This document shows positions 3,599 through 30,733 of a DNA stretch of 64,000 bases, in pieces. How positions within the stretch are numbered: the first letter of the stretch is position 1; every line of letters begins with the position of its first letter. This stretch comes from an uncultured bacterium. Lineage in GTDB: Bacteria; Desulfobacterota_D; UBA1144; Nemesobacterales; UBA2774. The stretch covers positions 672,001 through 736,000 of the forward strand of contig CAWGRW010000009.1 of assembly GCA_963825135.1 (NCBI GenBank), in the 5' to 3' direction. A program made the position numbers and the translations under genes. The notes under the pieces were generated by a model. It made no database searches. It was not told where the DNA came from and worked only from the letters and a program-made list of their open reading frames with translations.

Positions 3599-4921
3599 AT
3601 GGACCATGCAATAGTTGTTGCCGCCGGCACGGGTGTAGAAGAAGAAAGCCTGAGCGCTCACGGAAAGACCGTATTCGGTTCCCTTCCACAAATCAAACGT
3701 CTCGTCATCACCGCCCAAAGAGCCGGCATTAAAAAATTCACGATAGTCACGGAAAAGGGAGACTCTTCTTTAAAGGATCTCCTGTCCGGCGATAAACGCA
3801 TAGAGAGCGATATAAGCTGGCATCCCCTGGGGTCGGAGGTAAGCCTCGGCTCCGATCTCTCCCTGATCATTCAATCCAACCTGATAACGACCCCGCGCGG
3901 GCTCTCTAATTTCATGGAGCACGAATGCGCCCCGGACGAGATAGCGGTGCTTGTGGACTCCGAGGACGACGCCTGGATCAAATCGGGCGGCGATGAAGTC
4001 TCGGACGTCTTTTCAGGCGGAGGAAAGGCCGTAGGCGCCTTCATGGCGTCAGGCAGGCTGCTCGAGAAATCGATCATGGATTCGATGTCGATGAGATCGT
4101 TCGTCCAGGAGCACATAGGGAGAGACAAAGTCAAGCTCAGGAAGTTCTCGGACTCATACTGGATGCGTCTCGATTCGGACAGAAACAACGCCGAGAGGGC
4201 CGAGGACCTGATATTCGCGCACGTCGGCAAGACCGCGACAGGCTGGCTGTCGAGAAACATCAACAGCAAGATATCCCTGCCGACGAGCAGGCTCCTGGTC
4301 AGGACGCCCCTCACCCCGAATATGATCAGCGTGCTCATCAACGTAATCGGAATGCTGTGCGGGGTGTTCTACGCAATAGGTCATCCGGTGTGGGGCGCGC
4401 TCTTCATGCAGGCGGCTACGATTCTCGACCGCTGCGACGGGGAGGTCGCCCGCGTAAAGCTGATGGAGACGCACAAAGGACAATGGGTCGATACGATTTC
4501 CGACCAGGTAACGGTCCTGTCTTTTATATTGGGCGTCCCGATCGGGTATTACGTCGTTTCAAAGAGCCCGCTCGCAATAATATTGGGCGCAATAAACCTG
4601 TCCATTTTCATATTTTTCGTAGTCTGGTCGTTCTACTTCCTCAAGAAATATACGAATTCGGGAAGCCTTGTAACTTACTTCGATGTCGATAAACTAGTTG
4701 AGGGGCAGAAACTGTCGCTCGCGCGAAGGTTCATCACGCTGATCCGGCCCATGGGCAGAAGGAATTTCTATTCCCTCGCATTCCTGGTGCTTGCGATCGT
4801 CGGGGGATACCCTTGGGTACTCGGCATCCTGACTGCAGCATTGGTTGCGTTTCTGATTCATCAGATTGAAGATATGATAAAATTACGGAGAGTCGATCCG
4901 AAAAGCAGTATCTTAAAATAA
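3599..4921 (+). CDS. CDP-alcohol phosphatidyltransferase with degenerate N-terminal NTP-transferase-like domain
   Basis: CDP-AP signature DRCDGEVAR-x8-GQWVDTISD, TPN motif and several TM helices; the N-terminus AIVVAAGTG lacks the following R/PK residues. Confidence 0.88.
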   Translation: MDHAIVVAAGTGVEEESLSAHGKTVFGSLPQIKRLVITAQRAGIKKFTIVTEKGDSSLKDLLSGDKRIESDISWHPLGSEVSLGSDLSLIIQSNLITTPRGLSNFMEHECAPDEIAVLVDSEDDAWIKSGGDEVSDVFSGGGKAVGAFMASGRLLEKSIMDSMSMRSFVQEHIGRDKVKLRKFSDSYWMRLDSDRNNAERAEDLIFAHVGKTATGWLSRNINSKISLPTSRLLVRTPLTPNMISVLINVIGMLCGVFYAIGHPVWGALFMQAATILDRCDGEVARVKLMETHKGQWVDTISDQVTVLSFILGVPIGYYVVSKSPLAIILGAINLSIFIFFVVWSFYFLKKYTNSGSLVTYFDVDKLVEGQKLSLARRFITLIRPMGRRNFYSLAFLVLAIVGGYPWVLGILTAALVAFLIHQIEDMIKLRRVDPKSSILK

Positions 4922-4944
4922 TATCGTGCAGGAAGGGAATTAAC

Positions 4945-5742
4945 ATGGCAGATCCAGCTCAAAAAGATACGAAAGAAACCGGACAGAGCGGAAACGGCAG
5001 TAAGTTTCAGGCGGATTACGAAGTGAAGGAGTACATGCCGGGGCTTATGACGCTGGTCATCAAGTTCGTGGAAAAAACGAACGTCCTGTTCGCAAAACAC
5101 GGGAACCCCTCGATTTACGACAAGAAGACCTTCCCCTGGGTCGCCGAGGTCGAAAAGGAATGGAAGAAAATAAGAGCCGAGCTCGACAAGGTGATGGAAA
5201 GAAAGGAGGACCTCCCCAGTTTTCACGAAATTATGCCGGAGGTAAAAACGATAACTACGGATAACCTCTGGAAAACGTTCTTCCTCGCCGGATACGGGCT
5301 CGAGAGCGACGAGAATGCGAACAGGTGTCCCGAAACGACCCGCATCATAAAAAAGATACCGGGGATGAAAACCGCGTTTTATTCCATCCTCGCCCCGAAG
5401 AAACACATCCCGGCTCACAAGGGGCCCTATAACGGAGTCCTGCGTTATCACCTGGGCCTGATAGTGCCCGAGCCCAAAGAGAAGTGCCGCATCCGGATCG
5501 TGGATAAAGTGACCCACTGGGACGAGGGCGACAGCATCATATTCGACGATACGTTCGAGCACGAGGTCTGGAACGACACTAGCGGCTTCAGGGCCGTGCT
5601 GTTCGTCGACTTCGTCCGTCCCGTGAGATTTCCCTTTAACATGTTAAACGAATTCCTTATTAACGCCGCGTCGTTCGCCCCGCTGATAAAGGAAGCGGAA
5701 GTCCGGCATAAAGACTGGGAAAAGAAATTTTATAAGCAGTAA
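4945..5742 (+). CDS. aspartyl/asparaginyl beta-hydroxylase-domain 2OG-Fe(II) dioxygenase
   Basis: HIPAHKGPYNGVLRYHLGL and FDDTFEHEVWN...RAVLFVD. Confidence 0.9.
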   Translation: MADPAQKDTKETGQSGNGSKFQADYEVKEYMPGLMTLVIKFVEKTNVLFAKHGNPSIYDKKTFPWVAEVEKEWKKIRAELDKVMERKEDLPSFHEIMPEVKTITTDNLWKTFFLAGYGLESDENANRCPETTRIIKKIPGMKTAFYSILAPKKHIPAHKGPYNGVLRYHLGLIVPEPKEKCRIRIVDKVTHWDEGDSIIFDDTFEHEVWNDTSGFRAVLFVDFVRPVRFPFNMLNEFLINAASFAPLIKEAEVRHKDWEKKFYKQ

Positions 5743-14374: not shown

Positions 14375-17394
<3,020 letters not shown>

Positions 17395-17499
17395 AAGGTA
17401 TGAAAATCACCGCATAATTAAGCACGCTCGATTTACTCAGCACAATATGAAATTGTCAAAGATCCATGCAAATAAACATTTGCTTTGTTTGCAATGTTT

Positions 17500-17573
17500 T
17501 GGAGGTGAGCGGGATCGAACCGCCGACCTCCTGCTTGCAAGGCAGGCGCTCTCCCAAGCTGAGCTACACCCCC
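17500..17573 (-). tRNA. tRNA-Ala(TGC), CCA not encoded
   Basis: GGGGGTGTAGCTCAGCTTGGGAGAGCGCCTGCCT-TGC-AAGCAGGAGGTCGGCGGTTCGATCCCGCTCACCTCCA. Confidence 0.97.
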
Positions 17574-17637
17574 GATCTAACTATCAATCCGAGAAACTCA
17601 ATAAAGTAAGAATCAAGTATTAGATCAACTATATCGG

Positions 17638-17714
<77 letters not shown>

Positions 17715-17818
17715 GTCAGTTAATCCAACAGGCGACTCCACTTTACTCCGAGAAAGCACCAAAATTTAATAGCAGATAAAGCGAGCAAAAGAACGAGAAA
17801 GCAATTTTTCTCCGTGAA

Positions 17819-19379
<1,561 letters not shown>

Positions 19380-19483
19380 TGATCTTATGAAATGATTGCT
19401 TAGCTCTTCTTTGCCCGCTTATCTGCTATTTAATTTTCAAAGATCTGAAATATCTTTTCAGATATTTTGCCAAAGGGACATAT

Positions 19484-23636: not shown

Positions 23637-23858
23637 TCATTCGTCCGGCTTGGATACCGCGTTCTTAAGGGCGTCTGGTGTTGGGTGCGAATAACGCATG
23701 TTCATCTGGATTGAGGAGTGTCCAAGAAGTTTGGACACGGCCGCCAAATCGACTCCGGAGAGGGCCGGTAGAGGGGCGAATGTGTGTCTAAAGTCATGAG
23801 ATCGAGGATTTTTAATGCCTGCCCGATTACCGGGGTTTTTAAATGCGGTCCGAATAAC
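23637..23858 (-). pseudogene. tyrosine integrase C-terminal remnant
   Basis: RAGIKNPRSHDFRHTFA...GVDLAAVSKLLGHSSIQMNMRYSH; no N-terminal domains, because the upstream frame runs into tRNA-Leu. Confidence 0.82.
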
Positions 23859-23908
23859 ATTTGGGAATTTAAACCAAAGAGTAAAAACCTTCGTATTATC
23901 CCAAAGAA

Positions 23909-23992
23909 TGGGCAGGGAGGGAGTCGAACCCTCACGAGCGTGAGCCCAACGACTTTTGAGGCCGTCGCGTCTGCCGGTTCCGCCACCTGCCC
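23909..23992 (-). tRNA. tRNA-Leu(CAA), CCA not encoded
   Basis: GGGCAGGTGGCGGAACCGGCAGACGCGACGGCCT-CAA-AAGTCGT, long variable arm, GGTTCGACTCCCTCCCTGCCCA. Confidence 0.95.
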
Positions 23993-24075
23993 TTTTTAGT
24001 GGGAACATTATTATTCTCTGCAATATAAAAAGAATCAATAGGACGAGAACGGGAACGGGCGCTCGCGGACGAGGG

Positions 24076-25943: not shown

Positions 25944-26061
25944 CCAAGGCAGCTTCCTACTTTCCCACTCCCGTACAGGAGCAGTATCATCGGCCTCGAA
26001 GAGCTTAACTTCCGGGTTCGGAATGGGACCGGGTGTGACCTCTTCAGTATTACCACCTAGA
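25944..26061 (-). rRNA. rrf: 5S rRNA (stand-alone)
   Basis: CTAGGTGGTAATACTGAAGAGGTCACACCCGGTCCCATTCCGAACCCGGAAGTTAAGCTCTTC...GTGGGAAAGTAGGAAGCTGCCTTGG. Confidence 0.95.
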
Positions 26062-26072
26062 TTCCGGGATAT

Positions 26073-26100
26073 AATTTACACAAGATTTTATACGTGTCAA
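26073..26100 (-). promoter_or_regulatory. dedicated sigma70 promoter of the 5S gene
   Basis: Minus strand TTGACA-N16-TAAATT, ending 11 nt before the 5S 5' end. Confidence 0.65.
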
Positions 26101-26152
26101 GAACCGGAGTTGAATCACGGCTCTAAAGATGATTTAATTCTAACAGACGGCC

Positions 26153-27010
26153 ATGGATGAGTTATTAAAGGGGTTTATAGCCTCGCTTAACAGAAGGGAG
26201 ACCACCAGGGACACCTACCGAAAGGCCCTCGGCGAGTATTCTAAATGGCTCGGGGGAGCCTCTCCCCTGGCAATCGAATCAAACGACATACAACGGTATA
26301 AGGATTACATCGTCTCAAAAAATTTGTCCCCCGCCTCCATGTCGGCATACCTCACAGCAGTGAGGAGGTTCTACGTATACCTCCTTTCCGCGGGCCGGAT
26401 AAAGGAAAACCCGGCAAGCAGGATAAAGGGCGCCCCCCGGCCCAGAAGGCACCTGACGGACCCGATTTCACGAAGAGAGGTCGAGAGGCTCATTTACGCG
26501 GCCGACGCATCAAGCCCCCTCGGACGGAGGGACGGGGCGATTCTCAACCTGATGGTCAGATCGGGGTTGAGCGAGATAGAGATAGTAAGGTCGAATCTCG
26601 GGGATTTGAAATACAGAGGCGGGAAAAGGGTAATTTATGTCCAGGGAAAGAGCAGGGACAGGAAGGACGAATACGTCGTACTGAGCGGGCCAGTCGAGGA
26701 ATCGCTCAGGGTTTATCTTGAAGAAAGAGGGGCATCGGGCCCGGACGAGCCGCTATTCTGGGGGGTAGGCAACAGGGCGGTGAGAGAGAGGATATCCACG
26801 AGGGGGTTGAGAGCGCGGATAAGCCGCTATTTCGAGATCGCCGGAATCAAGAAGAAAGGGATAACACCCGCGAGTCTCAGGCACACGGCGGCGATGCTCG
26901 CGATAGAAGACGGGGCCACCGTTTCCGAGATACAGCGAATGCTCAGGCTCGGAACCACCGAATCCGCCATACAGTATTTCGAGGAAGCAAGGGAATTGAC
27001 GAGGAAGTAA
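26153..27010 (+). CDS. XerC/D-like tyrosine recombinase-family protein with substituted catalytic residues
   Basis: SAM-like N domain (T..TY..AL, LSPAS..YL.AVRRFY..L, NPA); catalytic boxes read SGLSEIE, QGKS, TPASLRH and MLRLGT..AIQY. Confidence 0.85.
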   Translation: MDELLKGFIASLNRRETTRDTYRKALGEYSKWLGGASPLAIESNDIQRYKDYIVSKNLSPASMSAYLTAVRRFYVYLLSAGRIKENPASRIKGAPRPRRHLTDPISRREVERLIYAADASSPLGRRDGAILNLMVRSGLSEIEIVRSNLGDLKYRGGKRVIYVQGKSRDRKDEYVVLSGPVEESLRVYLEERGASGPDEPLFWGVGNRAVRERISTRGLRARISRYFEIAGIKKKGITPASLRHTAAMLAIEDGATVSEIQRMLRLGTTESAIQYFEEARELTRK

Positions 27011-27057: not shown

Positions 27058-28648
27058 TTAAGCCTTTTCGAGATAGCTCTTAATAGGATAGACCCTTCCG
27101 GCCCTTTTTAATTTCTTTATCGCTTTCACTTCGATCTGCCTTATCCTCTCGCGCGTCACCTTGAATTCGTGCCCGACCTCTTCGAGCGTATGCTCCTTTT
27201 CATCGTCTATGCCGAAACGGAGCCTCACGATACTTTCCTCCCTCGTATTCAGCACGGAAGAGAGGGCGTTGTTGATTATCTCCTTGAGCTCGCTCATCTC
27301 GAGGACCTTTACAGGCGAAGTCGTATTCGAGTCCTCGATGAGGTCGACGAGCTTGCTGTCCTCCTCGTCCCCTATCGGGGTCTCGAGAGAGATCGGGTCT
27401 TTCGAAATCTTGAGCACGCGCGCGACCTTGTCGGACTGCATGCCCACCTTCTCCGCTATCTCTTCGGGAAGCGGTTCGCGCCCCAGGTCCTGAACCAGGA
27501 GCCTCGAGGTCCTGACTATCCGGTTTATGGTTTCCGTCATATGGACCGGTATCCTGATAATCCTCGACTGGTCGGCAAGGGATCTGGTTATCGCCTGCCG
27601 TATCCACCAGGTCGCATAAGTGGAAAACTTGTATCCCCTGTTGTATTCGAATTTTTCGACTGCCCTCATCAGGCCCATATTGCCTTCCTGGATGAGGTCG
27701 AGGAACGGGAGACCCCGGTTTATGTAACGCCTGGCAATGCTTACTACGAGACGCAGGTTGGACTCTATCAGCTTCCTCCTCGCCCTGTGCGTCATCTGCT
27801 CCCCGAACTCCAATCTCCTGAGCGATTTCTTTAGCAGTCCGGTGTCCGTATCCGAATCGTCAAAGAACTCCTCCATGGTTCCCTTGAGGGCTTTCTTGGC
27901 TTTCGACAACGCGGACTTCTTCTTATGGCTCAGAACCTCCAATTCGCGCCTGAGCTTCTCGATCCTGTCGATATAACCCTTGGCGACGGAGAGTATCCTT
28001 TCCATCTGAGTCCCGTTCAGGTTTATATCTTCAAGGTAGCCCAGCATTTTATCGTTATTCTTCTTTATCCTCTCAAGAGTGACCTTCTTCTTTTCTGATG
28101 GAAGCGGAGACGAGCTCTTTTTTTGCGAGCTCGTTGTCCTCGTTTAATTTATTTATCGCTATCAAAGAATTCCTTATCCCCAGCTGAACCTCTTCCTCGA
28201 CGGCATTGTCCGCGTCATCCAGGGAATTCGTTATGTCCCTTACGTTCAGGCTCCCTTTCTGAAGCTCGTCTCCCAGCCTTATTATCTCTTTTAACATCAA
28301 TGAAGAACCCAGGATAGCTTTGGCGACGATCCTTTTACCCGTCTCGATTTCTTTCGCTATTCTTATTTCCTGCTCCCTCGAAAGCAGGGAATGGTCCGCT
28401 ATTTCGTGGAGGTAAAACCTGATCAGGTCGTATTCGTTCGTATTATCTTTTGCATCATTCAGACCGAATCCGTATTTGACCGTGGTTTCCTGAACTTCCT
28501 CGTCCGTGAACTCCACGTCGTCCTGCTCCTCGGCGAAAATGACGTCGTCCTCGATCTTGTCTTCTTTCGCGGACTCTATAACCGGACCGGGGTCGATGTC
28601 GTCATTGGCGATCCTGATTTGAAAGCCGCTCTTCTTTTTGTTTCTCAT
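27058..28648 (-). pseudogene. rpoD: RNA polymerase primary sigma factor RpoD, split by a +1 frameshift (probably sequencing error)
   Basis: Region 1.2 (DLIRFYLHEI..LLSREQE) is in ORF 28073-28648 and regions 2-4 ([36 protein letters not shown]) are in ORF 27058-28047. Removing one base from the T4 run at 28091-28094 joins them. Confidence 0.9.
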
Positions 28649-28667: not shown

Positions 28668-30407
28668 TTATTTTTGTTTCATTAAATCCGTATATTCGGT
28701 CAGCAGACGTTTTTCGAGCTCAAAATTTTTACTTTTGACGGCATCATTCAGCCTGAGCCTCAGCGTCTTTAATTGCTCGTCCACCCTGGCGAGCTTCAAT
28801 TTCCCTAAACAGCTCTCGATCATTTTGACCGCGGTTTCCCTGTCGGAGATTCCCGGAGAAGACATGAGCGCTTCGGAAATGAGGCTCTGCGCCGCACTGC
28901 CCTGAAACAAGAGGAAAAGAGACGACATGTCGTGAACGCCGTTTATTACGATCTCTTCGAGAATCGACCTGACCTCAGGGTTCGTAACATACCCCTCCAG
29001 GTCCTCAGCCGCGATATTCGAGGAGAGATCCGGGAATTTGAGGAAAATATTGAGCAGCAGCTTTTCATGGTTGTTATGGACCTTTACAGCCTTAGTCCCG
29101 CCGGTCTTTCCCCGCCCCCTTCCGAGTCTGACGAGCGACAGCACTTCATTTTCCCCGAGCCCGAGCTTCTCGGCGGTCTTTCTTATAAAGCTGCTCCTGA
29201 GTATCGGGTCATTAACCTTAATCAGCACGTCGGCTATCTCTTTCACGCCGCTGTTTAAAGTGATTTCCCCGCGCCGATAATCTCCTATGGTGTTATCGAT
29301 GTAGAAATCGAGCAGCGAGGGAGATTCGTCCAGCAGTCTCTCGAATTCCCCTCTTCCCCTGACCGCGAGGAACGAGTCGGGGTCATTGCCCTCCGGAAGC
29401 AGCACCACGCTCGGGAGCAGCCCCTCTTCGAGAAAAACATCGAGCGACCTTACGGCGGCTTTTACGCCCGAATCATCGCCGTCGAAAACGACCACTATCC
29501 TGTCGGTATATCTCCTGAGCGTGACCACGTGGTCTCTCGTCAGCGACGTCCCCAGGGTCGCGACAACGTTTTTAACGCCGGCTGAGTAGAGGGACAGGAA
29601 ATCCGTATACCCCTCGACGATTATCGCCCTTTTATTTTTTCTGATGTGGTCCTTCGACCTGTCGAGCCCGTAGAAGTTCTTTCTCTTTTGATAGATCTCC
29701 GATTCGGGGGAATTGATATATTTAGGCTCGTCGCTTTCATTGATCCTTCTTCCGCCGAAGCCTATTATTTTTCCCTCCACGTTGGCGATCGGGAAAATAA
29801 TCCTGTTCCGGAATCTGTCATAGTATCCGTCGCCGCTGTTTTTCTTGACGACGAGGCCGATCTTCTCGGCCAGCGAAAGGGGGATATTATGCTTCGATAA
29901 ATATGTTACTAGATTGTCCCAGCCGTCCGGGGCGTAGCCCAGCTTGAACTCCTCTACAACCTGAGAGGGAATATTCCTTCCTTCCAGATAGAGCCTGGCC
30001 GAGTTGCCCTTACGGCTCTCGAGCAACGACCTGTGATAAAATCCGGACACGGCCGAATTTATTTTTAAAAAATTTCCGGTCTGTGACTTGCCTTTAACGG
30101 CGGGTGTGCTTTTTTCGATAGTGATGTTCGCGCGCTTGGCGAGGTCTGAAACCGCTTCGGGAAATGTAAGACCGTTATACCTCATGTAAAACCCCAGCAT
30201 GTCGCCCCCCGCGCCGCAGCTGAAACAATGGAACAGGCCTTTTTCCTCGTCTACGTGCATCGATGGGTTATGGTCGTCGTGAAAAGGGCAAAGGGCTACA
30301 AAACCCTTCCCCGTCTTTTTAATAGATGTGTAACCTTCAATGAGGTTAATAATGCTCAACCTCCTCTTTATTTCTTTAACGAGGAAATCATTGTTAAAAT
30401 TTACCAT
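28668..30407 (-). CDS. dnaG: DNA primase
   Basis: CPFH...CFSC zinc finger, DRFRNRIIFPI, KYINSPE, VEGYTD, FDGD..G, DPD. Confidence 0.97.
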   Translation of the reverse strand: MVNFNNDFLVKEIKRRLSIINLIEGYTSIKKTGKGFVALCPFHDDHNPSMHVDEEKGLFHCFSCGAGGDMLGFYMRYNGLTFPEAVSDLAKRANITIEKSTPAVKGKSQTGNFLKINSAVSGFYHRSLLESRKGNSARLYLEGRNIPSQVVEEFKLGYAPDGWDNLVTYLSKHNIPLSLAEKIGLVVKKNSGDGYYDRFRNRIIFPIANVEGKIIGFGGRRINESDEPKYINSPESEIYQKRKNFYGLDRSKDHIRKNKRAIIVEGYTDFLSLYSAGVKNVVATLGTSLTRDHVVTLRRYTDRIVVVFDGDDSGVKAAVRSLDVFLEEGLLPSVVLLPEGNDPDSFLAVRGRGEFERLLDESPSLLDFYIDNTIGDYRRGEITLNSGVKEIADVLIKVNDPILRSSFIRKTAEKLGLGENEVLSLVRLGRGRGKTGGTKAVKVHNNHEKLLLNIFLKFPDLSSNIAAEDLEGYVTNPEVRSILEEIVINGVHDMSSLFLLFQGSAAQSLISEALMSSPGISDRETAVKMIESCLGKLKLARVDEQLKTLRLRLNDAVKSKNFELEKRLLTEYTDLMKQK

Positions 30408-30541: not shown

Positions 30542-30733
30542 CTAGTTTTTTCTGATACGTTTTATTACGCGCTTCTTGGCGGCGAAAAGTTTTTTCTTCT
30601 TCCGCTCGCTCGGTTTTTCGTAATGTTCTCTCCTCCTTACTTCGGACAACACCCCTCCCTTCTCGACCTGCTTTTTAAACCTTTTAAGCGCGCTGTCTAT
30701 GCTTTCGTTGTTTCCGACCACAATTCCTGGCAT
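30542..30733 (-). CDS. rpsU: 30S ribosomal protein S21
   Basis: [17 protein letters not shown]...[25 protein letters not shown]17-TAATTT promoter at 30777-30805. Confidence 0.97.

Follow-up and report, generated by a model that had tools for sequence, protein, structure and literature searches.

What becomes of a tyrosine recombinase of the Xer type when its most critical catalytic arginine has been replaced and the gene is nevertheless kept? The question is raised by an open reading frame (ORF) at 26153..27010, plus strand, of a 64,000-nucleotide stretch of DNA from an uncultured bacterium (contig CAWGRW010000009.1, positions 672,001 to 736,000), called the window here. Existing classifications place nearly all tyrosine recombinases among mobile-element or Xer enzymes, and the initial annotation of the window saw in this ORF a Xer-like protein with three catalytic residues replaced, perhaps a domesticated and dead recombinase. 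The ORF encodes a full-length 'simple' Xer-like tyrosine-recombinase paralogue, with a core-binding and a catalytic-type domain. It is a host gene, present once per genome and kept by purifying selection, and is neither a pseudogene nor the chromosome-dimer resolvase. The reading that its sequence favours, and to which we would give about an even chance, is that of a non-cleaving host protein that binds or bends DNA at specific sites.

Fold and catalytic positions

The ORF has an ATG start and runs intact through 285 amino acids. Its product matches the SAM-like N-terminal domain PF02899 (35.2 bits, cut-off 22.3) and, over residues 107-275, the Phage_integrase domain PF00589 (52.8 bits, cut-off 27.1, 5.2e-14), giving a core-binding SAM-like part at about residues 1-90, a linker at 91-105 and a catalytic-type domain at 106-285. 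The G+C content at third codon positions (GC3) is 0.684, with 0.64-0.76 in the adjoining genes, a host-like composition, and the early description of an intact, full-length Xer-like ORF in host-like codon style was sound. Scores against the NCBIfam equivalog models fall well short of their cut-offs, both for XerD (TIGR02225, 116.1 bits, cut-off 329.6) and for XerC (TIGR02224, 101.9 bits, cut-off 335.15). The AlphaFold2 model, made with 52 homologues in the alignment, has a two-domain C-clamp fold (predicted local distance difference test, pLDDT, 87.3; predicted template modelling score, pTM, 0.77) in which poor definition is confined to linker residues 95-100 (pLDDT below 50). With this model Foldseek places XerA (5hxy), an archaeal Xer protein (4a8e), XerD (1a0p), Cre, IntI4 and XerH in the top ranks, the probability being 1.00 for XerA, XerD, Cre, IntI4 and XerH.

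Catalytic positions were assigned through HMMER alignments to E. coli XerD (1a0p). The first catalytic arginine (ArgI) is replaced by Ser140, where GLSEIE pairs with XerD ATGLRVSEL; the codons of Ser140 and of the next residue, Glu141, which together form the signature of a clade described below, lie at 26570..26575 (plus strand, as for all positions in this paragraph). The first catalytic histidine (HisII) is replaced by Ala240 and the second arginine (ArgII) is retained as Arg243, within PASLRH aligned to PHVLRH; the A-S-L-R residues 240-243 are encoded at 26870..26881, and most orthologues have Tyr in place of the Ala. The second histidine (HisIII) is replaced by Leu266 (26948..26950), with MLRLGT opposite LLGHSD. 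The beta-hairpin lysine is retained as Lys166 within QGK (26648..26650), as is the nucleophile, Tyr275 (26975..26977), with IQYFEE opposite QIYTHV. Where a canonical enzyme has the R-K-H-R-H pentad and a tyrosine, this protein thus has S140-K166-A240-R243-L266-Y275, and the substitutions named at the outset (Ser at 26570-26572, A-S-L-R and LRL, with the lysine, second arginine and tyrosine kept) are all borne out by the alignment. XerD, XerC and XerA (1a0p, 5hxy, 4a8e) have the same two-domain simple fold and length, provide the best sequence and fold matches in the PDB, and share the Lys, ArgII, Tyr and Box-I Glu; they differ in retaining ArgI, HisII and HisIII, and the window gene is unlinked to dif.

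Conservation and selection

The substitutions are not peculiar to the window. Among the best 120 homologues, at 59-100% identity, ArgI is Ser in 115, Gly in four and Asn in one, and is Arg in none of the 120, while Lys, ArgII, Tyr and the Box-I Glu are each present in 120/120. HisII is represented by Tyr (69), Val (16), Ala (15), Ser (10), Leu (5), His (4) and Gln (1), and HisIII by Leu (64), Val (37), His (15) and Ile (4). An alignment of 52 homologues has 85 invariant columns. The ratio of nonsynonymous to synonymous substitution rates (dN/dS, Nei-Gojobori) is 0.06-0.13 in 10 of 11 orthologue pairs, and dnaG gives 0.08-0.12 in nine of ten, with purN similar; for the closest pair (dS 0.06-0.07; 0.056 for the Xer-like gene) the ratio is 0.29 for the Xer-like gene and 0.22 for dnaG. 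Selection on this family is thus as strong as that on dnaG.

The initial annotation had looked to orthologous substitutions, to a dN/dS below 1, to conserved synteny with rrf and rpoD and to separate intact xerC and xerD genes to tell domestication from decay, and on each the data speak for a gene that has been kept (synteny and the Xer genes are described below). Purifying selection, substitutions fixed across homologues and a separate XerC/XerD/dif set together mark the gene as a functional paralogue that has been maintained and is not in recent decay. The assembly does contain indel errors, as the apparent frameshifts in rpoD and in one leuS copy suggest, but the ORF itself is intact, ArgI is replaced throughout the close homologues, dN/dS is about 0.1 and the invariant columns are many, so that a decaying pseudogene, a sequencing error or a relic of a relocation of the neighbouring 5S rRNA gene can be given only a negligible probability.

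An old clade without the first arginine

A family-profile search of 1.84 billion representatives returned 1055 clusters at E<=1e-30, with top matches of 190-330 bits as against 86.7 bits for E. coli XerD. In the rows examined, the window protein and 149 representatives, ArgI is retained in 124/150 and replaced in 26/150. With six fragments shorter than 250 residues left out, the 123 rows that retain ArgI serve here as live relatives, and they keep ArgI (100%), HisII (98%), HisIII (100%) and Tyr (100%). A FastTree phylogeny of 71 rows, comprising all 21 full-length Arg-less rows and the first 50 of the 123 live ones, puts 20 of those 21 on one side of a branch whose Shimodaira-Hasegawa-like support, 92, lies below the 95 mark. 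The nearest live relatives are plasmid or mobile simple recombinases (on plasmids of Streptococcus thermophilus, Limosilactobacillus and Flavobacterium), uncharacterised and named 'tyrosine-type recombinase/integrase', which match at 190-330 bits by profile and 32-35% identity by tblastn and have QGK, SLRHTA and TTxIY in common with the window family. They retain R-K-H-R-H-Y and sit on plasmids or short contigs, whereas members of the window family lack the arginine and lie on the chromosome in conserved synteny.

Searching again with Arg-less sequences from outside the window's group gave 1080 proteins at E<=1e-30. Names among the 120 matches listed are few, being metagenome-assembled genomes (MAGs) labelled 'Bacteroidota bacterium' and one 'Chlorobi bacterium'; a Rhodothermales MAG and a contig labelled Kryptonium provide further members of the clade. 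In 121 sequences of this Bacteroidota-type group the ArgI position is Ser in 119, Ala in one and Gly in one, Lys is present in 121, ArgII in 120 and Tyr in 121, HisII is Phe or Tyr and HisIII is Leu or Ile. Taking both Arg-less groups together, Glu143, Lys and Tyr occur in 241/241, ArgII in 240/241 and Ser at the ArgI position in 234/241. The Arg-less family is large, with more than 1000 clusters at 90% identity (E<=1e-30) in two phyla and with Ser fixed at the most critical arginine. The clade is old and undescribed, with Tyr, Phe, Ala or Val at HisII and Leu, Ile or Val at HisIII, and with Lys, ArgII, Tyr and the Box-I Glu invariant.

Several other positions are invariant in both groups. Ser140 and Glu141 are found in 0% and 11% of the 123 live relatives. 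Arg96, Pro97 and His100 of the interdomain linker (R96-P97-x-x-H100, 26438..26452, plus strand) occur in 24%, 28% and 42% of live relatives and Arg220 in 44%, while Ser62 and Pro87, also invariant in both groups, are rare in live relatives. On these comparisons the changes of Arg to Ser at the ArgI position and of Thr to Glu at the next residue are the only true inventions of the clade, and they leave a pocket with less positive charge. The invariant Arg and Lys residues common to both groups (R71, R126, K171, R192, R208, R213, R217 and R220) are consistent with nucleic-acid binding.

A binder or a remodelled active site

Which of the three replaced residues matters most can be judged from Cre, where all 19 substitutions at each active-site residue have been reported and Arg173, Lys201, Arg292 and Tyr324 are described as critical (PMC2943603). 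R173H is reported active in vivo and in vitro and R173K in vivo only, other changes at R173 being devastating, and Glu176, His289 and Trp315 are said to tolerate many changes (PMC2943603). By this tolerance at HisII and at Trp/HisIII, ArgI is the sole decisive one of the three residues replaced in the window protein. The word 'dead' went too far: the two histidines are not critical in Cre, Lys, ArgII and Tyr are invariant in the family, and the CTnDOT integrase (IntDOT) is reported to be active without ArgI, using another arginine further downstream (PMC8138268). From the same classification comes the IntDes subgroup, with a shifted ArgI and HisII changed to Tyr (PMC8138268). Both are described as complex recombinases, carried by mobile elements and equipped with arm-binding domains (PMC8138268), and the window protein has, in addition, lost both histidines.

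With such examples to hand, the site may have been remodelled and may still carry out tyrosine-mediated phosphoryl transfer (recombination, nicking-closing or something related), the main rival reading, though one we consider unlikely. The role of ArgI would then, and with the same low likelihood, have passed to a candidate such as R96/H100 of the linker, R220, or a metal held by Ser140-Glu141-x-Glu143. The fixation of Lys166, Arg243 and Tyr275 in both groups, with Glu143 invariant, fits this well, as does the Ser at the ArgI position itself, which is fixed and has not drifted, and as do R96, P97, H100 and R220, invariant in both groups; CTnDOT integrase, IntDes and the tolerance of Cre at HisII and Trp/HisIII also speak for it. 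Four things speak against it. The substitute arginine of IntDOT reportedly sits two residues before the hairpin lysine, and in the window family that place is taken by Gln164, invariant in 52 sequences and at least 96% conserved in both groups. R96, H100 and R220 are already present in many live relatives that keep ArgI, and so are not new compensations. The pocket has become less cationic through the new Glu adjoining the place of the lost Arg. Lys, ArgII or Tyr is lost in more divergent clade members (Lys, ArgII and Tyr at frequencies of 0.85, 0.80 and 0.90 in 20 representatives). To these may be added a stable synteny around the gene, with no inversions or excisions evident. The lack of an arginine beside Lys166, the pre-existing state of the candidate substitutes, the new Glu and the losses in divergent members lead us to favour a non-cleaving binder over a remodelled enzyme.

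A more specific and less probable proposal, which we regard as speculative, takes Ser-Glu-x-Glu with Lys, Arg and Tyr as a remodelled reactive centre, and the protein as a housekeeping phosphoryl-transfer enzyme or a covalent nucleic-acid clamp tied to the translation apparatus. There the arginine may come from the linker R-P-x-x-H or from R220, or be substituted by a metal ion, and the substrate may be RNA or a promoter-embedded dif-like box (TAA-N6-TTATTGC, taken up below).

As a non-cleaving binder, the protein would, like Xer proteins, still clamp a specific core-type site on DNA and would no longer perform normal cleavage and strand exchange; its role would be regulatory or architectural, possibly including repression of its own near-leaderless promoter. 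We infer the binding and the loss of cleavage from the retained fold and the fixed substitutions. Five observations weigh against this account. Lys and ArgII do not vary, and still more notably neither does Tyr (241/241, Phe in none); this is unusual for a site without chemistry and fits a remodelled site equally. HisII and HisIII are dispensable in Cre by the report cited, and CTnDOT integrase is active with ArgI replaced. The gene is dispensable, being absent at the syntenic site from a 99%-complete, one-contig genome that belongs to the window's own family (G089) and from genus g10. Lastly, the window's lineage has yielded no target site, and every conserved intergenic element there can be taken for a promoter hexamer.

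A precedent is TnsF of Tn6022-like Tn7 transposons, in which an inactivated tyrosine-recombinase domain is reported to serve as a DNA target selector (PMC10293859). The likeness lies in a recombinase-derived protein, TnsF being described as retained for DNA recognition and bending without catalysis, yet it has N-terminal zinc fingers, duplicated core-binding domains and no catalytic chamber, and is part of a transposon (PMC10293859). The window protein is instead of standard architecture, 285 amino acids with no extra domain, retains Lys, ArgII and Tyr, and is a solitary host gene among purN, 5S, rpoD and dnaG. If it is a non-cleaving binder, it would offer a clear bacterial example of a recombinase turned by exaptation into a DNA-binding protein of its host; if chemistry persists, it would represent a new active-site solution. 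Full-text literature searches gave nothing on tyrosine recombinases together with 'pseudoenzyme', nothing linking tyrosine recombinases with ribosomes, cryo-EM and 5S rRNA, and nothing relevant on Dadabacteria and 5S rRNA. The word 'inactive' does not appear in the main text of a family-wide classification from 2021, whose supplementary files may list such subgroups (PMC8138268).

Distribution, synteny and the solo 5S rRNA gene

The gene lies 92 nt from a solo 5S rRNA gene on the other strand (25944..26060, minus, 87.2 bits) and converges on rpoD (27058..28648, minus), which is followed by dnaG (28668..30407, minus) and rpsU (30542..30733, minus); the head-to-head and tail-to-tail arrangement described earlier agrees with these coordinates. 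We compared 34 orthologous loci at 58-78% identity, labelled Candidatus Dadabacteria, Thermodesulfobacteriota and similar. A block of DAHP synthase, purN, 5S, the Xer-like gene, rpoD and dnaG is conserved among them, with 5S divergently upstream in 32/34 (gap 83-144 nt), rpoD directly convergent in 32/34 and purN present in 30/34. Of the two loci lacking 5S upstream, one (L041) has its upstream DNA missing and the other (L023) has dnaE instead. The two adjacencies being equally frequent, that to 5S is no stronger than the rest of the block. Two further records (L043 and L044, 31% identity, Ardenticatenaceae) were dropped as unrelated, since they are live integrases of the ordinary sort and lack a 5S gene.

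Of 120 sampled genomes of the phylum, 40 carry the gene, one copy in each. Leaving the window's own genome (G000) out of the family counts, it occurs in 28/32 genomes of one family (f1) and 11/15 of a second (f2), together 39/47, and in 0/72 of seven other families. Five gene-less genomes were examined, G089 from f1, G007 from f2, G016 from f3, G019 from f4 and G026 from f6, and in none did tblastn at E<=1e-5 find a match to the Xer-like protein. All five nevertheless keep dnaG, rpoD, 5S and purN adjacent, the end of rpoD lying about 45 to 830 nt from 5S, and all have a 5S promoter of the TTGACA-17-TAAAnT type at an equal distance from the mature end. The solo 5S beside rpoD is therefore independent of the Xer-like gene. 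The suggestion that the gene is a relic of the event that relocated 5S fails on this count, with rpoD-5S-purN and the same autonomous promoter in place where the gene is absent. The further suggestion that the protein acts on the shared 5S promoter finds no specific support, since the whole block is syntenic and the wider clade sits beside leuS. The place of the gene beside 5S is inherited synteny.

G089 keeps a recognisable remnant of the Xer-like gene's promoter, ATTAAATCATATTTTT, which points to secondary loss of the gene there. Its rpoD/5S spacer (locus L132, C1:54828-64943, at 4172-5000) is 830 nt long and holds unrelated small ORFs, one of 137 amino acids, as well as the promoter relic. 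The spacer thus seems to be a spot of DNA exchange that accepts other DNA. No relative at 60% identity or more was found in 50,697 phage or 72,556 plasmid records, and the PADLOC defence-system models gave 0 families for the window protein and for a second protein, P0125.

An unlinked 5S is common to all 37 related loci that carry 5S here (the 32 orthologous loci and the five gene-less genomes), and in relatives it is directly downstream of rpoD. In the window it is the only 5S gene, with a strong promoter of its own, 6.5 kb upstream of the 16S gene of a 16S-tRNAIle-tRNAAla-23S operon (14375..19381) that has no 5S.

Promoters, leuS and a possible tie to translation

Two promoter-like elements stand back to back between 5S and the Xer-like gene, of the forms TTGACA-16/18-TAAATT and TTGAAT-17-(TG)nTTTAAT respectively. 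The 5S promoter (26073..26100, minus; TTGACA at 26100-26095, TAAATT at 26078-26073) was called by a consensus scan. The putative promoter of the Xer-like gene (26110..26138, plus) consists of TTGAAT (26110-26115), 17 nt and TTTAAT (26133-26138) with TG before it, and is conserved in an alignment of 33 intergenic regions. The ATG follows the hexamer by some 6-7 nt in most loci and by 14 nt in the window, with no Shine-Dalgarno sequence. A strict consensus scan did not call this second promoter, which breaks its rule of A at position 2, and with the element missed by the scan a leaderless or near-leaderless mRNA is something we infer from the spacing. An intergenic element considered as the XerD arm of a dif site was rejected, its likeness to the genome's real dif-like site, ATAAGATATATTATGTAAACT, being unconvincing.

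The sister group offers a different setting. A metagenome scan with 15 Arg-less sequences from outside the window's group confirmed 230 loci, of which the best 80 (L045-L124) were analysed; a simple ORF caller found the Arg-less gene in 68 of the 80, its starts being crude and some loci near-duplicates. The leucyl-tRNA synthetase gene leuS is next on the same strand in 42/58 loci with at least 600 nt downstream, and the gap to it is at most 35 nt in 31/46. Upstream genes vary and include genes for SpoIIE-type phosphatase, STAS and anti-sigma kinase proteins. No 5S was found in the 80 loci (500 kb; nhmmer, profile of 32 5S sequences), and Rfam at the gathering threshold gave a single tRNA in the 16 of the 80 loci with full flanks (142 kb).

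A strongly conserved box, TAAATTCTGTTATTGC, that is TAA(A/C/T)TTCTGTTATTGC with the variant CCGTTATTGAC in some sublineages, occurs within 200 nt upstream in 65/77 loci, about 20-110 nt before the Arg-less gene and at the promoter of its leuS operon. It comes directly after a TTGCAT-17-TAAATT promoter-like pair, and the 7-mer GTTATTG is found 84 times on the box strand and 14 times on the other in the 500 kb. Its skeleton, TAA-N6-TTAT, is reminiscent of Xer core sites, and its -10 part, TTAAATTCT, is found again in the lineage of the window. The box and the shared -10 part are a lead for autoregulation and nothing more. The TTG within the box was considered as a leaderless start codon and rejected, being out of frame or followed by a stop in several loci. 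With a leuS operon and promoter box in Bacteroidota relatives of a cultivable type, the question is open to experiment.

These neighbours suggest a role in translation, in which the protein would bind a small structured RNA (5S rRNA or tRNA-Leu) or specifically control translation genes, 5S here and leuS in the other phylum. The near-constant divergence from 5S, the close coupling to leuS and the box at the leuS-operon promoter all agree with this idea, which we hold to be rather improbable. The five gene-less genomes have an unchanged 5S gene and 5S promoter, the adjacency to 5S is matched by that to rpoD, and the 5S and leuS contexts have no partner gene in common. We found no RNA-binding precedent for the recombinase fold, and the absence of fused forms among 7999 candidates of 651-2000 amino acids tells against it as weak evidence.

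Relation to XerC, XerD and dif

The genome has a true XerD (386.7 bits, cut-off 329.6) and a true XerC (336.0 bits, cut-off 335.15), together with a phage-type integrase. The dif-like site quoted above is at G000 C9:2448794-2448814, unlinked to the Xer-like gene; it is also present at C4:152-172, on a 1.7-kb contig that probably duplicates the terminus region and was left unplaced in the assembly.

With an intact XerC, XerD and dif-like site at hand, the protein could be a non-cleaving third partner that occupies a dif-like or accessory site or forms mixed synapses, though we think this improbable to a high degree. It might so modulate dimer resolution or block mobile elements that exploit Xer, a part of the proposal that seems just as doubtful. 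Mutants of XerC with R148K can stimulate the catalysis of the partner, according to work cited in PMC2943603, and the C-terminal helix beyond Tyr275 is retained in the AlphaFold2 model. Set against this, the protein is nearer to plasmid or mobile simple recombinases than to XerC and XerD, its gene is linked to none of xerC, xerD and dif, and most families of the phylum sample, in which XerC and XerD were not surveyed, lack it.

Other observations

A Porphyromonas gingivalis chain in the PDB (9i5v chain 14, 'RaiA', 401 amino acids) was considered as a relative for the link to the ribosome that it seemed to offer, and was rejected, since R, HxxR, H and Y are all retained in its Xer-like part and its score is below that of XerD. 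The Xer-like region, about residues 66-287, is apparently intact, and only 34 residues are modelled, structurally hpf-like; the chain would be either a recombinase-hibernation-factor fusion or a gene-model merger.

Two genes of the assembly appear broken. In the window rpoD consists of two ORFs in different frames (28073..28648 and 27058..28047), with the break in an A/G-rich run at 28040-28080, while in orthologous loci the parts share one frame (for example L009, offset 600 nt); a one-base error in the assembly is the probable cause, rather than a genuine frameshift in an essential gene. The genome also has two leuS loci, an intact 831-amino-acid frame on a small contig (C7:938-3409) and a copy on the main contig split over three frames (C9:1215507-1217925), and the split or duplicate may be an assembly indel artefact or a contaminant contig.

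The early remark that no mobile cargo accompanies the Xer-like gene is correct for its immediate surroundings, with a qualification 2.1 kb away, where there is an integrase remnant at a tRNA-Leu gene. This is the C-terminal part of a tyrosine integrase, 133 amino acids at 23637..24038 (minus), which abuts or overlaps tRNA-Leu(CAA) at 23909-23992 (minus). About 70 of its residues match Xer/integrase models, with HxxR, LLGH and Y present, and its GC3 is 0.48 as against about 0.7 in host genes. It has the look of a scar left by an old integration at tRNA-Leu.

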